From positions 1-64,000 of the forward strand of contig JAYZAL010000038.1 of the NCBI GenBank assembly GCA_036339735.1: 64,000 nt of DNA, written 5' to 3'. The notes below the pieces were generated by a model. The model was not told the origin of the DNA and did not search any database. It saw only the letters and a program-made list of their open reading frames with translations. Shown here piece after piece: positions 26,450 through 34,048 of this stretch (position 1 is the first letter of the stretch; each line of letters begins with the position of its first letter). The DNA is from Candidatus Poribacteria bacterium (GTDB lineage: Bacteria > Poribacteria > WGA-4E > UBA9662). A program made the position numbers and the translations under genes.

Positions 26450-27443
26450 ATGTCTGTTTATATTGCCGATTCTCGTCGATATGGGACAATGCAGTACCGT
26501 CGATGTGGTCGAAGTGGCATCAAGTTACCTTTGATTTCGATAGGTTTATGGAAGAATTTGGGGGGATGATCCTATTGAAACTAGCCGATCGATTTTGCAT
26601 AGAGCTTTTGATTTGGGAATTACCCATTTCGATCTCGCGAACAATTACGGCCCGCCTTACGGTTCTGCCGAAGCAAATTTCGGTAAGATCCTGAATGATG
26701 ACTTTTTGGTCTACAGAGATGAAATGATTATTTCAACTAAAGCGGGTTTTGATATGTGGCCCGGTCCCTATGGTAATTGGGGATCTCGTAAATACTTAGT
26801 GGCAAGTTTGGATCAAAGTTTACAAAGGATGGGACTCGATTATGTTGATATTTTCTATCACCACCGGCCTGATCCTGAAACTCCTCTAGAAGAGACCATG
26901 TCTGCCTTAGATAGCATAGTGCGGTCAGGTAAAGCATTATACGTGGGTATTTCAAATTACTATTCTACTGAATTGACCCAAAAGGCGAACCAAATCCTGA
27001 AGTATCTTGGAACACCGTGCCTGATTCACCAACCACGCTATAATCTAATGGACCGACGAATTGAAAATAGTTTGTTAAAAACTTTAGAAAGTGAGGGGGT
27101 TGGTTGTATCCCTTTTTCAGTTCTCAATCAAGGGATTTTGAGCAATAAGTATCTGGGGCAAATCCCTGAAGGATCCAGAATAGCTAAAGCCCATACACCG
27201 ATGGAGAAAAGTAACTTAACAGATCATCTAACGCAAAAAATAGGCCACTTGAACAAGATAGCACTTGAACGGGGATAATCCTTAGCTCAAATGGCGCTGG
27301 CCTGAGTACTACGAAATGAGTCAGTAACGACTGCTCTATGTGGGGTCAGCCAGCCGAAATAAATTGAAGACAATGTTAAAGCTCTCAATTATCTAGAATT
27401 TGGTTCTGATGAGTTAGCAGAAATTGATCAAATTGTATCTTAA
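26450..27443 (+). pseudogene. Aldo/keto reductase (YghZ/Gpr/MgrA-like) pseudogene
   Basis: MQYRRCGRSGIKLP.ISIGLW at true start 26450; frameshift in G run ~26560; GITHFDLANNYGPP; three in-frame stops in RG*SLAQMALA*VLR...PK*IEDN; ends TAA 27443. Confidence 0.9.
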
Positions 27444-29874: not shown

Positions 29875-31197
29875 CTAAATTTCATCCAGAATGGCGTGAT
29901 CTTCAATAGAGATTAAGCCGGCAACCGTACCTTCTGGGTGTTGATACCAACCTGGATCCCGGTAATTAGTCAAATCTGACCTTACTTTAAGCAGAGTAAA
30001 CATGCCACCCATGGTGATATAGTCAAAAGGTCCATCGCCACCAACCATAGGCAACGAGTTATCTGGGACAGGCATTCCTCCCTTTTCAATATGTATACCC
30101 ATTTCCCCCATCCCGTCTTCACCCATTGGCATGTAGTCGGGTAGTAATCGACTAATTTGGTCTGCCGCTGTCGCTTTTTTCATGCCGATGACATTTCGAA
30201 AATCATGCCCCATCTGATTCATTACATGATGTGTCATATGACAATGTAAAGGCCAATCACCATTTTCACTAGCGATAAATTCAATCTCACGGGTACTACC
30301 AACCGGTACCAAAACGGTCGTTTCTGGCCATTGGGCAGATACTGGGAGCCGTCCACCATCCGTGGCTACGACCTTGAAATAATGGCCATGTAAGTGAATC
30401 GAATGATGATCCATAGCGCTTAAATTACCTAATCGAATACGAATCCTATCTCCGAGCTTGGCTACTAACGGAGCCGTACCAGGAAAGCAACGAGCATTCA
30501 TGGTCAAAACATTAAAGTCTTTCATTTCGTTAGGATTAGGTCGGAATGTACCAGGATCTAATCTCCACTCACTTAGCATGATAGCAAAATCACGATCTAC
30601 CTGATATTCAGGTGATTGATGGCGCGGATGAAAAATCATCATACCCATCATGCCCATCGCCATCTGAGTCATCTCGTCATGATGTGAGTGGTACATAAAA
30701 GTTCCCGATTGCCTGACGGTCCATTCGTACTTAAATGTCTGACCTGGCTTTATGGCGGGTTGGGTTAGCCCACCTACGCCATCCATTCCATTAGGCAAGA
30801 AAACGCCGTGCCAATGGACTGTGGTTGGTGCAATCAAGTTATTGGTGACATAAATCCTTATCCTATCACCTTCAACGGCCTCAATAGTTGGTCCATGCAC
30901 CTGTCCGTTGTAACCCCAACATTTACCTTTCATACCAGGTGCGAATTCATGCCATATTTCTTCGGCCACTAGGTGATAAACTTTAACTCCATTTACGATT
31001 TTCCAAGGTAAAAAAGTCCCGTTAGGCGTTTCAACCGGCTGATAATCTTGAACCGGTTGTCCAGGCGATAGAATAGGTTCGTTTGGGTTTCCAGCGTAAG
31101 ATTTCTCCCACTGTTGAGTTTGGCTTGCCTGAGCTAGGCCTAAAGCTTTACCCCCACCAGCTAATACACCAGTTTTTAACAAGTCTCGTCTTTGCAT
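29875..31197 (-). CDS. Tat-exported multicopper oxidase, Met-rich C-terminus
   Basis: Likely start MQRRDLLK (31197) just after the TolC stop; HWHG, YHSH, HSIHLHGH, HCHMTHH copper motifs. Confidence 0.9.
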   Translation of the reverse strand: MQRRDLLKTGVLAGGGKALGLAQASQTQQWEKSYAGNPNEPILSPGQPVQDYQPVETPNGTFLPWKIVNGVKVYHLVAEEIWHEFAPGMKGKCWGYNGQVHGPTIEAVEGDRIRIYVTNNLIAPTTVHWHGVFLPNGMDGVGGLTQPAIKPGQTFKYEWTVRQSGTFMYHSHHDEMTQMAMGMMGMMIFHPRHQSPEYQVDRDFAIMLSEWRLDPGTFRPNPNEMKDFNVLTMNARCFPGTAPLVAKLGDRIRIRLGNLSAMDHHSIHLHGHYFKVVATDGGRLPVSAQWPETTVLVPVGSTREIEFIASENGDWPLHCHMTHHVMNQMGHDFRNVIGMKKATAADQISRLLPDYMPMGEDGMGEMGIHIEKGGMPVPDNSLPMVGGDGPFDYITMGGMFTLLKVRSDLTNYRDPGWYQHPEGTVAGLISIEDHAILDEI

Positions 31198-31198
31198 A

Positions 31199-32668
31199 TT
31201 AATGGGCTCCATCAGAATATTCAATTTCAATTTTTTTATTATGGGTTGGTTGTTGGTCTTCTTCACTTGGTAGTCGGCCATTCAACAATTGTCTCAGTTG
31301 TGAAGCCTTAATTAGGTAATTGTAACCGGCTTGAAAATAGTCTAACTGGTGTTTAGCGAGTTGTTGCCTGGCTTCCAGTAGACGGATGGTTCCAATTTGC
31401 ATCGCATTATATTGCAGTTGTTGTTGTTCCAAAATTTGATTTTGTCCAGGTAAAACTTGATTTTGATAAAAGTCAACCACCCTTTTTGCACTGATTAGTT
31501 CTGCCTTGAGAATTCTAGCTCTGGATCGAACTTCGACAGCGGTTTGGTAATAAGAGTGCTCTAAGTTTTTTTCCCTAGATTCAAGCATTGATTTTTGGGC
31601 CTGTCCACGATTAAAAATAGGCAATGCTAAACCAATTAGTGGTCCAATCTTTTTTTCTGTCTGGCCTGAAGCGGTTTCCATACCTATTTCAAAATGAGGC
31701 AACAATCCACGCCTCTGCTCTAAGCTAATCTGTTTCCGAATTAGATTGATTTCCTGTTTCTGAATTTTGAGATTGATATTAGCTTCAACAGCCTGATTTT
31801 CAATCTGACTCAGATTGTTTGATTTAATACTGGTTTCTAGGAGAGGTAAAGGTAAATCTGATGGTTGGATCTGCCAGTTAATGTCTTTGCCCCATAACCC
31901 CATCAGTTGGTTAAGTCGCTCACGACTACGACGATAATCATCCTCAACTGTTAATAGACTTAGTTTAGCTTGTTGATAGATGGAAGTTTGTTGTAGGAAA
32001 TCCAAACGAGTAAGGTTACCAGCCTGAAATAGACCAGTGGCAAAATCTGTGGCAGCTTCGTTGGCGAGCACAATTTGGCGATGGACTTCCATACGATACC
32101 AATCAGTTACCAATTGGTGGTATGCTTGCTCAGTTTGACTAATCAAGTCGATTACTTCAGCTCTAATTTGATGAGCTGTCATTTTTACGTAGTACTTTTG
32201 TATTGCCTGTTGTTTAGGGTTAAATAACAGATCAGCTATATCCATACTGATAACCATCTCTGACTCTGCTGAATGTGCATGTTCATTTGGCCAATCTGTA
32301 TGCAGAGAAAAGTGAAGCGACGGGTTTGACCAAATCCCTGAAGCAACCCACTCTGCCTGATCGATGCCTAGCCGTTGGAAACTAGCCTGAAGGGATCTAT
32401 TATTAAGCAAAGCCATTTGGACTGTCCGTTGCAGATCAAGTGGCTGAGACAACATTTCTTCCCGTTTAGCTGAAGATAACGCACCCATTTTAAGCTGATG
32501 ACTAGTCTGTTGTTTAGTAACGGTGCTAATTTCCGAAAAAGTTTGTTGTACAGAGAAATTAGCACAGCCAGTTGCTATAAGCCCAATTACCCACGAGACG
32601 AGCAATATTAGAAACAATGTCTTGAGTCTCCACCAATTTTCAATGATTACTTTCTTTCTATTGGTCAT
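31199..32668 (-). CDS. TolC/CusC-family outer membrane lipoprotein
   Basis: Lipobox ATGC; A..NN..LQA, LPIFNRGQ, YNAMQIG...LL; coupled to MCO. Confidence 0.85.
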   Translation of the reverse strand: MTNRKKVIIENWWRLKTLFLILLVSWVIGLIATGCANFSVQQTFSEISTVTKQQTSHQLKMGALSSAKREEMLSQPLDLQRTVQMALLNNRSLQASFQRLGIDQAEWVASGIWSNPSLHFSLHTDWPNEHAHSAESEMVISMDIADLLFNPKQQAIQKYYVKMTAHQIRAEVIDLISQTEQAYHQLVTDWYRMEVHRQIVLANEAATDFATGLFQAGNLTRLDFLQQTSIYQQAKLSLLTVEDDYRRSRERLNQLMGLWGKDINWQIQPSDLPLPLLETSIKSNNLSQIENQAVEANINLKIQKQEINLIRKQISLEQRRGLLPHFEIGMETASGQTEKKIGPLIGLALPIFNRGQAQKSMLESREKNLEHSYYQTAVEVRSRARILKAELISAKRVVDFYQNQVLPGQNQILEQQQLQYNAMQIGTIRLLEARQQLAKHQLDYFQAGYNYLIKASQLRQLLNGRLPSEEDQQPTHNKKIEIEYSDGAH

Positions 32669-33368
32669 TACTTTCTCCCTGAGTCATTAGTGAACTAGTT
32701 TCTAGCTTAAATGCCTGACTATAGCACTTTAGCATCGTTGCACCAAAATAAGGGTTTCTCACCTCGGCCACCGATTGTAACCAGACTCCTTTTTGTGGTA
32801 CGTGTGGGGCCATACCACACACAAATCCGTAAACTTTCACAGGAAGAGCTAATTTATGTAGCCAATCCAATAAGCTATGGCTTAAAAAACCGTAATGCTT
32901 ACGAGCATCTTGTATGGAGCTAGAAGAGGATAATTGATGACCATACTGATGGATTTTTTCTAGAATCTGAATTATCTTAAGGTCTTCTTGGTTCGTTACA
33001 CTTTTTAGCTGATCTAAGGCAGATAAAAATGTGTGGGATTGAGAGGGAATCGTATCGTATTTGTCCTTAGCTAGCCGATTACCAACGGCAAAGTAAGCTT
33101 CTAACATATTTTGTAAGTATTTAATTGCTTCGTTGGATAAGGCTAAGGTTGAACCTTTCGGCATTTTAGCCCTTTCGCTTTGCCGAATTAGCAGAGTATT
33201 TTTTGATTGATCTAGATTAGTTGAATCTATTTTTGCCGATGTGGGTTGAGCAGGATGGATATTCGAACTATTGGGTGCAGAGTGATGACTACAACCAAAG
33301 ATGAACGCAAATACAAGGGCCGTAATGATCGAAATTAACATATGAATTAGTCGAATGAGGTTTCTCAT
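32658..33368 (-). CDS. DUF3347-domain lipoprotein (metal-efflux associated)
   Basis: Lipobox IFGC; Y..V...LA.D, AR..YG.LS, C.MA....WLQ....NPYFG..M..C. Confidence 0.75.
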   Translation of the reverse strand: MRNLIRLIHMLISIITALVFAFIFGCSHHSAPNSSNIHPAQPTSAKIDSTNLDQSKNTLLIRQSERAKMPKGSTLALSNEAIKYLQNMLEAYFAVGNRLAKDKYDTIPSQSHTFLSALDQLKSVTNQEDLKIIQILEKIHQYGHQLSSSSSIQDARKHYGFLSHSLLDWLHKLALPVKVYGFVCGMAPHVPQKGVWLQSVAEVRNPYFGATMLKCYSQAFKLETSSLMTQGESNDQ

Positions 33369-33434
33369 AACAATCTCCTATCTTAACCATAAATTATCCA
33401 AGTCTTAGATGGTTCAATTGATGATTTGGTGACT

Positions 33435-33488
33435 AAAAAGCACTGGGACTGGGGTCAGGTCCTCCCCAGTAAATGGGGGCCTCAGACC
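33435..33488 (-). promoter_or_regulatory. Alternative hairpins (terminator/antiterminator-like) upstream of the copper operon
   Basis: mRNA GGUCU..CCCCA-UUUAC-UGGGG-A-GGACC competes with ACUGGG(G)...CCCAGU-GC-UUUUU. Confidence 0.4.
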
Positions 33489-33519
33489 AAGTAATAAAAA
33501 ATAAACCGGATTCTAATTT

Positions 33520-33942
33520 CTAAGACAGATACGAAAATGGCGGAGAGCGAGGCGAACAAAAATTTAGGAAAGAATCTAAAATGCTTAGTGTGGAATGATG
33601 TCCGAACCATAAGTAAGAAACTGGCTCTACCGAAACCGGATAGGTGAGACTAGCTAGATCTATTACATGGTAGTAGGTATGTGAGTGTGGCGTTTTATTT
33701 TTACTTTGGTTAATTACTGATTTAATAGAACAACAATTGGTTTTGGTGTTCTTCGGTTCTGAATCAGGTCGATCTGTTTGATAGCAACAAAAAGAAATTT
33801 GATGAAATTTGGCAGTTTTGGAGAGATGGTCTTCGATTTGGTTGCAACTATCTAGACCACCCCAAGCACACACCACCCAGCAGGAAAAGTATACTGGCAA
33901 GGCAATAAGCGCCAGAATTGTTTTTCTTCTACGCTCTGTCAT
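33520..33942 (-). CDS. Cys/His-rich secreted leader protein with C-terminal PRSPP (CutF/CruR-like candidate)
   Basis: Basic+hydrophobic N-terminus, CWVVC, two CC pairs, RSPP five residues before stop; first gene of copper cluster. Confidence 0.6.
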   Translation of the reverse strand: MTERRRKTILALIALPVYFSCWVVCAWGGLDSCNQIEDHLSKTAKFHQISFCCYQTDRPDSEPKNTKTNCCSIKSVINQSKNKTPHSHTYYHVIDLASLTYPVSVEPVSYLWFGHHSTLSILDSFLNFCSPRSPPFSYLS

Positions 33943-34048
33943 ATTTTCTATACTAACCTAATCCCAATATAAAAAACAAATATACTCAAAATAGTCATGG
34001 CCAGCCTTTAGTTGAAAAAACAAACTTTACTCCACATCTTTTCATTGA

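Follow-up and report, generated by a model that had tools for sequence, protein, structure and literature searches.

A cysteine-rich leader ending in RSPP heads a multicopper oxidase operon in Poribacteria: a candidate ribosome-arrest switch acting through the next ribosome-binding site

Three described kinds of leader come closest to the locus reported here: CutF, upstream of cutO in Rhodobacter capsulatus (PMC8456105, PMC9973294, bioRxiv 10.1101/2025.02.05.636593); CruR (Bp2923, DUF2946/PF11162) of Bordetella pertussis (PMC9426467, its arrest in PMC12992588); and the ApdA, ApdP and SecM-type monitors (PMC10951233, PMC10987492, PMC12992588). CruR and CutF are described as keeping their Cys motif about 45 residues away from the arrest motif (PMC9426467, PMC9973294), RAPP arrest is reported to leave one Pro codon in the P site and the next in the A site (PMC12992588), and OEP genes are given as the commonest downstream neighbours of CutF-like genes (PMC8456105, PMC9973294, bioRxiv 10.1101/2025.02.05.636593). 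For CutF, copper bound to the exported cysteines has been proposed to prevent disulfides and so prolong arrest (bioRxiv 10.1101/2025.02.05.636593). CruR and CutF respond in opposite directions, for a cause described as unknown (PMC9973294). For the question of how metal bound outside the membrane can make a stall longer or shorter, the leader family presented below offers a natural series, with RAPP, RGPP and RSPP motifs, another Cys geometry, a 65-residue spacer and at least two couplings to the next gene. It also suggests that Poribacteria, an abundant uncultured phylum of marine and sponge-associated bacteria, control copper genes at translation. The switch principle has already been published, and the value of the present case therefore lies in the variant.

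The window, the whole stretch of DNA analysed, comprises 64,000 nucleotides of a Candidatus Poribacteria contig (JAYZAL010000038.1, assembly GCA_036339735.1). A preliminary description had singled out a 140-aa Cys-rich ORF with CWVVC, two CC pairs and a C-terminal RSPP, lying directly upstream of DUF3347, TolC and multicopper oxidase genes. The ORF translation bears this out and adds the strand: the ORF fills positions 33520-33942 of the minus strand and ends in CSPRSPPFSYLS followed by the stop, and the plus-strand reading of the same interval, full of stops, was rejected. The gene order was confirmed as well, with a 151-nt gap and family matches for the three genes, that of the DUF3347-like gene to PF11827 (24.9 bits) being just under the 25.5 cut-off. 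The features of the leader and operon are:

33862..33936, minus strand: hydrophobic N-terminal helix, residues 3-27, a probable Sec signal or signal anchor (hydropathy and structure model)
33520..33942, minus strand: leader ORF, 140 aa, with six conserved Cys and C-terminal RSPP (ORF reading and homologues)
33868..33882, minus strand: CxxxC (CWVVC, C21 and C25) at the C-terminal end of the hydrophobic helix; C21 kept in 44 and C25 in 43 of 45 aligned homologues
33784..33789, minus strand: first CC pair (C52, C53), kept in 44 and 45 of the 45 homologues
33730..33735, minus strand: second CC pair (C70, C71), 62 residues before the Arg in the window leader (alignment)
33538..33549, minus strand: RSPP arrest-type motif, five codons ahead of the stop; R132 and P135 invariant and P134 nearly so (n = 45)
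33369..33519, minus strand: intergenic region, 151 nt, unique in the genome, without a sigma-70-like promoter on this strand
32658..33368, minus strand: DUF3347-like predicted lipoprotein, 236 aa, first target gene (PF11827, E 3.8e-5)
31199..32668, minus strand: OEP/TolC-family outer-membrane protein, overlapping the DUF3347-like stop (PF02321; TIGR01844 below cut-off)
29875..31197, minus strand: multicopper oxidase, 440 aa from the Met that opens a twin-arginine signal (family match and motifs)

The DUF3347-like protein has a lipobox-like Cys, as read from its sequence. The oxidase carries copper-ligand His motifs in both domains, with HCH in the second, and its closest relatives in named genomes are from Candidatus Poribacteria. 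No other genomic copy of the intergenic region scored better than E 0.18, and a repeat origin was rejected on that ground. A separate promoter between the leader and the DUF3347-like gene would have told against a leader function; none of sigma-70-like type was seen there on the coding strand. Contigs assembled from four metatranscriptome runs bridge leader and intergenic region (33379-33650, 33443-33780) as well as intergenic region and DUF3347-like gene (33181-33417, 33243-33437); with depth below 7, no strand information and possible DNA carry-over, these bridges were not counted as evidence of co-transcription. On the plus strand of the window, positions 26595-27278 hold a 227-aa ORF that looks cut short at both ends and that we take to be aldo-keto-reductase-like. 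The preliminary description had recognised no CsoR, CueR or CusRS regulator in the window; this holds for the window's whole contig, on which no CsoR, MerR or CusS-type gene was found, but another contig of the assembly (C23; the assembly is 92% complete) carries a CsoR/RcnR-family gene, so that transcriptional control is possible. A narrow pattern for a CsoR operator matched nothing upstream of the leader.

The leader protein has no passing Pfam or NCBIfam match. Its N-terminus is basic and then hydrophobic, with a 19-residue hydropathy peak of 2.14, and in the structure model confidence is confined to helix 3-27 (block pLDDT 89/86/71), which would make this helix a probable Sec signal or signal anchor. 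The mean pLDDT of the model is 50. Upstream of the ATG (33943-33975, minus strand) there is no evident Shine-Dalgarno (SD) sequence, which may mean weak translation or a leaderless mRNA. A TAGTAT hexamer 7 nt before the ATG would agree with the latter; in one related genus the corresponding site carries a strong SD instead.

A DUF3347-like orthologue is present in 21 of 41 related genomes, counting our own. In 20 of these 21 loci the gene is preceded by an intact small leader ORF; residues 21-25 of these leaders read C[P/W]xxC, two CC pairs are present, and R[A/S]PP stands four or five residues before the stop. The remaining locus, in genome G001 of the same genus (L003:941-1336, plus strand, approximate; contig C129), has a leader that is interrupted by frame changes and stops and yet keeps RGPP at its end; it forms no SD helix, the operon genes behind it look intact, and the broken leader may reflect either decay or an assembly error. 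A profile built from 18 leaders matched 74 of 151 genomes of the phylum, and it also matched 31 cluster representatives. In an alignment of 45 leaders, mostly 15-26% identical to the query, the only invariant or nearly invariant residues are the six Cys and the R, P and P of the motif, so that the Cys conservation that the preliminary description had proposed to check was found. A seventh Cys (C33) is kept in 36 of the 45. The His clusters also listed in the preliminary description do not hold up as a sensor, each His being kept in just 2-3 of the 45 homologues. Between the leader and its nearest relative dN/dS is 0.32 for codons 1-33, 0.83 for codons 34-109 and 0.21 for codons 110-140, all from small counts.

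For measurements of spacing, 62 distinct leaders with a callable downstream start were kept by script from loci L001-L092. L066, L070 and L072 had no such start and were left out, and the filter removed leaders in which a CC pair is lost, among them L054 and L080. The CxxxC, the two CC pairs and R-[A/G/S]-P-P are kept across these 62 leaders at about 20% identity. From the last CC to the Arg there are 62-67 residues in all 62 and exactly 65 in 52 of them; this spacer is free in sequence and fixed in length. The residue x of R-x-P-P is A in 36, G in 23 and S in 3, all three being reported as fully or partly arrest-permissive at this position (PMC12992588), and R[AGS]PP is followed by 2-9 residues before the stop in 62 of 62, in a set that was itself selected for the motif; the 20 of 21 loci chosen by their downstream gene give an independent count. 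The genome otherwise avoids such motifs. In its ORFs of at least 300 aa (928,213 residues) RAPP, RSPP, RGPP and RDPP together occur once against 23.9 expected, while the control motifs RTPP (5 against 5.1) and RLPP (9 against 8.9) are not depleted; RSAP is also low, with 2 against 9.6. Within the last 15 residues R[ASGD]PP occurs in 3 of 8287 ORFs of at least 60 aa, two of which are Cys-rich leaders of this family.

The leaders fall into three classes by the genes that they head. Class A (34 leaders) heads the oxidase operon, and R-x-P-P is present in all 34 (32 RAPP, 2 RSPP), as the preliminary reading had required; seven loci were moved into this class by hand because they had been fetched as DUF3347 orthologues. 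Class B (13 leaders, all RGPP) stands before a YtkA-like gene, an FMN_bind-like gene and the gene of a probable heme protein. Class C (15 leaders, including L056 despite its mis-called start) heads an uncharacterised exported protein with an in-frame TGA. The genome under study has a paralogous leader of its own, with CxxxC, CC, CC and RSPP, on contig C19 (59158-59562; L022:3159-3563, plus strand). Outside the 62, locus L054 (G145, contig C95) has an RAPP leader before an ECF sigma factor, and by eye its SD region looks complementary to the Pro codons.

When the leader end and the intergenic region were folded, the arrest codons were found to pair with the SD of the next gene. This anti-Shine-Dalgarno helix, built from the arrest codons themselves, is a coupling absent from the preliminary description. 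In the window it consists of:

33519..33549, minus strand: 5' arm of the predicted long-range helix, Arg-Ser-Pro-Pro codons through the stop (folding)
33374..33409, minus strand: 3' arm, ending in the SD AGGAGA (33374-33379) of the DUF3347-like gene (folding)
33449..33469, minus strand: inner G+C-rich hairpin inside the loop (folding)

We assumed the canonical anti-SD tail of 16S rRNA, for which the assembly gave one match in an unconvincing context. A scan found no intrinsic terminator in the intergenic region, and none is claimed at the inner hairpin because the nearest relative lacks the run of T that follows it here. At most class A loci GCA CCT CCG TTT pairs with AAACGGAGGT. This 10-pair helix is the sole consensus structure in 21 aligned class A loci, with thin covariation (a two-sided change in 1 of the 10 pairs, and any CCTCC pairs with any GGAGG), and a 7-pair version is found in 11 class B loci. 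Pairing of the ribosome-binding site (RBS) to the leader tail reaches P of at least 0.5 at 31 of 34 loci in class A, at 9 of 13 in class B and at 2 of 15 in class C. Class C, in which most loci lack the SD helix, also often has CCT as the first Pro codon (9/15). Compensated changes occur at the third base of the second Pro codon (G-C 30, A-U 6 and G-U 3 of 44), and L048 changes both sides of the adjoining pair. The register of the helix shifts between loci: the window pairs its Ser-Pro codons (TCT CC) with GGAGA and has a second arm through the stop codon, L068 uses the second Pro codon, and in the C19 paralogue the codons after PP give a 12-pair match. An RNA-driven origin of RSPP, with the Ser codon supplying the anti-SD, is weakened because this paralogue has RSPP and takes its anti-SD from later codons.

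Among adjacent gene pairs, 2 of 776 match the window duplex between tail and RBS (-25.7 kcal/mol), as do 31 of the 2997 other RBS regions, 10 of the 664 that bear GGAG, and 31 of 3000 synonymous recodings; the duplex of the C19 paralogue is unremarkable by energy, 120 of the 776 pairs being as good. Five positions flanking the SD core are Watson-Crick in 175 of 220 cases against 140.9±5.9 with partners shuffled, and none of 5000 shuffles was as high, a statistic that overstates the case because the genomes are kin; slid controls gave at most 90 against 141 of 176. In 17 cross-comparisons a leader's own RBS ranked first in 4 and among the top three in 12. Taken whole, the region folded in the window is no more stable than its shuffles (z -0.94), and the SD of the window is paired at 0.26 with the five RSPPF codons alone and at 0.64 with the whole tail. 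Since the Pro codons would sit in the P and A sites, a stalled ribosome would cover the 5' arm. In 19 of 20 loci the RBS becomes cheaper to open once a ribosome footprint is placed on PP, the cost falling in the window from 11.2 to 8.1 kcal/mol against 10.9 with the footprint 12 codons upstream. Even so, most of the SD then pairs with other partners at equilibrium (unpaired at 0.33 in the window and at 0.00-0.20 at other loci). In L052/L087 and in L077, palindromic repeat-like insertions extend the intergenic region to 238 and 249 nt and make the predicted SD pairing weaker (P 0.20 and 0.22).

Taken together, the leader is very probably a stall-operated translational switch on the operon. Leader and operon would share one mRNA. 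With no ribosome at the leader end, the codons from RSPP to the stop would pair with the SD region and block initiation on the DUF3347-like gene, as the computed and conserved helix suggests. The N-terminal helix would thread the nascent chain through the Sec channel, and when the ribosome stands at RSPP the fixed spacer of 62-65 residues would just have brought both CC pairs out of ribosome and channel, going by the approximate tunnel and channel lengths in PMC9973294. If metal is absent, the cysteines would fold or form disulfides and, together with the pull of export, a weak arrest would be released; the helix would then re-form and the operon would be off. RSPP is described as only partly arrest-permissive in ApdA/ApdP (PMC12992588). 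If the thiols bind a soft metal, of which Cu(I) is the likeliest, the stall would be longer and, by analogy to CutF, would keep the anti-SD covered, so that the lipoprotein, TolC-type and oxidase genes could be translated. That the stall would turn the next gene on follows from the geometry of the helix; copper as the cause of the stall is proposed from the target genes and from CutF.

We give this whole reading, a CutF-like switch in which a copper-dependent stall at RSPP unmasks the RBS of the DUF3347-like gene, a probability of roughly 60%. Its parts differ in strength. We have little doubt that the ORF is a cis-acting ribosome-arrest leader, we consider SD unmasking likely to be what couples the stall to the operon, and copper, by analogy, is the inducing signal that we favour with more reserve. 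The translocation-coupled arrest sensor of the preliminary description is in this respect supported by the sequence comparisons. Against a switch stand G001, which keeps the operon behind a broken leader, and the paralogues, which precede genes other than oxidases.

The signal is the part of the reading most open to a different answer. The same stall-and-unmask switch might respond to a different metal or metalloid that reacts with thiols (Ag, Hg, Cd, As), or to the capacity of the periplasm for export or for forming disulfides. The conserved ligands are all Cys, set in vicinal pairs as known from Hg- and As-binding proteins, without a conserved His or Met, and leaders of one family stand before three distinct gene sets and, at one locus, before an ECF sigma factor. 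We nevertheless think it unlikely, since the targets of the window operon include a multicopper oxidase, which needs copper, and no sec or dsb gene lies directly behind the leaders listed. The related OEP-oxidase pair of Myxococcus xanthus also speaks for copper: OEP gene, oxidase gene cuoB and corE are described there as linked and CorE/copper-regulated (PMC3107203). An M. xanthus locus with a 61% identical oxidase behind an OEP gene, which may be cuoB, is among the matches.

A switch of opposite sign, in which the ribosome stalls by default as in CruR, metal releases it, Rho-dependent termination is the main output and copper turns the operon off, appears improbable. Rho is present in the genome, the intergenic length resembles the 162 nt of CruR (PMC9426467), and over their last 120 nt the leaders have more C than G (mean skew 0.51 for class A); the window's own skew is just 0.22, however, and Pro-rich coding inflates the measure. 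The targets look like detoxification rather than uptake, and in class A the SD helix is the conserved structure. Nine aligned paralogous loci with weak SDs form no SD helix, which counts for this reading in that another coupling then exists within the leader family; a Rho layer on top of translational control is possible. Least probable is that the leader works in trans, as an exported metal-binding protein or chaperone of the ordinary kind, with RSPP and the RNA complementarity incidental. A signal-like N-terminus, the many Cys and the lack of a global folding signal in the RNA would agree with such a protein, but the model offers no confident fold past the N-terminal helix, the spacer is constrained in length and not in sequence, and the rest of the proteome avoids R[ASGD]PP-type motifs. 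The CutF-like switch thus remains our preferred reading.

The nine loci just mentioned (L053, L057, L058, L060, L079 and L081-L084) have RGPP leaders before a TGA gene. They share two hairpins in the intergenic region and a third, local one that covers the RGPP codons, and 12 of the 29 pairs show two-sided changes, which suggests that intergenic hairpins may be a second mode of coupling within one leader family. At several of them YHS, two OEP and CusB-like genes lie downstream. In the genome under study, the gene behind the C19 leader (L022:3627-4682) encodes an exported protein with an in-frame TGA-Gly-Ala-TGA after the signal peptide. Its homologues have C-x-x-TGA or TGA-x-x-TGA followed by a conserved SNP, with a hairpin 3' of the TGA. 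SelA and SelB are encoded in the genome; tRNA-Sec was not found among the 34 tRNAs of an incomplete set. The product has no Pfam or NCBIfam match, and all 16 database homologues are 288-313 aa long, against 351 aa for the read-through product. To judge from these features, the gene is probably an unannotated selenoprotein. Our broadest proposal, which is tentative, is that Poribacteria have a family of six-Cys arrest leaders with a 65-residue ruler and a geometry unlike that of CruR and CutF, which would sense soft metal through a membrane-proximal CxxxC and two CC pairs and would serve as a portable module, acting by SD unmasking at the oxidase and YtkA-like operons and by an intergenic-hairpin mechanism before an exported CxxU/UxxU selenoprotein. 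If this is true, an arrest peptide gates a UGA-recoded gene.

Some neighbouring families can be set aside. Language-model look-alikes at 0.95 include DUF6769 (PF20558) clusters, and the name HYC_CC_PP (NF047658) describes, as we take it, a Cys/CC/PP layout similar to that of the leader. The profiles PF20558 and NF047658 had no match in the genome, the best DUF6769 value was E 0.068, in 2 of the 45 homologues, and the shared-feature count (142-145 of 256) is below usual same-family values; membership was rejected for want of a passing profile match. PF11162 (DUF2946) likewise had no match in the leader, its 45 homologues or the genome at E≤10. Outside Poribacteria, none of 39 loci had an R[ASG]PP leader upstream of the oxidase. 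By eye, eight of the loci from other phyla (L142, L152, L158, L162, L169, L170, L185 and L188) have, in the slot before an OEP-oxidase operon, a small ORF that contains Cys and ends in a Pro-rich tail of another kind; none of these ORFs passed a family cut-off, and one had a weak CopL-family score below it. In a distant member of the Poribacteria (L153:2617-3024, plus strand) the same slot holds an RAPP leader with CxxC 43 residues upstream, counted by hand, and without CC pairs. This is close to the geometry of CruR and ties the operon slot to a known kind of leader. The literature titles found on copper and multicopper oxidases in Poribacteria, and on DUF3347 and copper, include none on this system, and the protein lists of PMC9973294 may already include such leaders.

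Compared with the rules for CutF-like proteins, the window leader is 140 aa long (the limit being under 150-170), has no Pfam match and carries PP in its last 15 residues; a multicopper oxidase lies within ten genes and the next same-strand gene within 1000 nt. A CxxxC is present (CWVVC, 21-25), N-terminal and not central, and the basic-hydrophobic N-terminus with its predicted helix may be the cleavable Sec signal peptide for which these rules also ask. Of the analogy with CutF and CruR drawn in the preliminary description, the CutF-like sequence rules thus stand; CWVVC does not stand as a positional equivalent of the CutF CxxxC, nor is there a DUF2946 match.

CruR likewise has R-A-P-P near its stop, a fixed Cys-motif spacing, a long intergenic region and the first place in a copper-related operon. 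According to PMC9426467 and PMC12992588, it differs in its CxxC with 45-residue spacing, in acting by Rho-dependent termination, in a signal peptide that is dispensable and in an uptake operon that copper represses. The ApdA, ApdP and SecM-type monitors combine the same motif class with a localisation signal, and the window leader has, like RAPP-type leaders, an invariant Arg and Pro-Pro with a small residue between. In the monitors a stalled ribosome opens the SD-hiding stem and induces the next gene, a step that here would follow from the inferred stall; their targets are sec or yidC genes, whereas the genes downstream here are metal-handling, with no sec or yidC, and the window has the weaker natural variant RSPP (PMC10951233, PMC10987492, PMC12992588).

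The closest likeness is to CutF-cutO, in the descriptions given by PMC8456105, PMC9973294 and bioRxiv 10.1101/2025.02.05.636593. There too a small exported Cys-motif leader with a C-terminal di-proline motif heads an operon that includes a Tat-type multicopper oxidase, and an mRNA helix, predicted by computation in our case, hides the next SD and would be opened by a stall. The terminal motif is PPP in CutF and R-x-P-P in the Poribacteria leaders. The CutF stem-loop is described between genes, whereas here the arrest codons are the 5' arm and the loop spans 74-238 nt in class A. Finally, the CxxxC of CutF is central, about 45 residues from its motif, and CWVVC ends the hydrophobic helix, 111 residues before the Arg. 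With no profile match and this different Cys geometry, the leader is, on sequence grounds, not a member of DUF2946, and would work like CutF.
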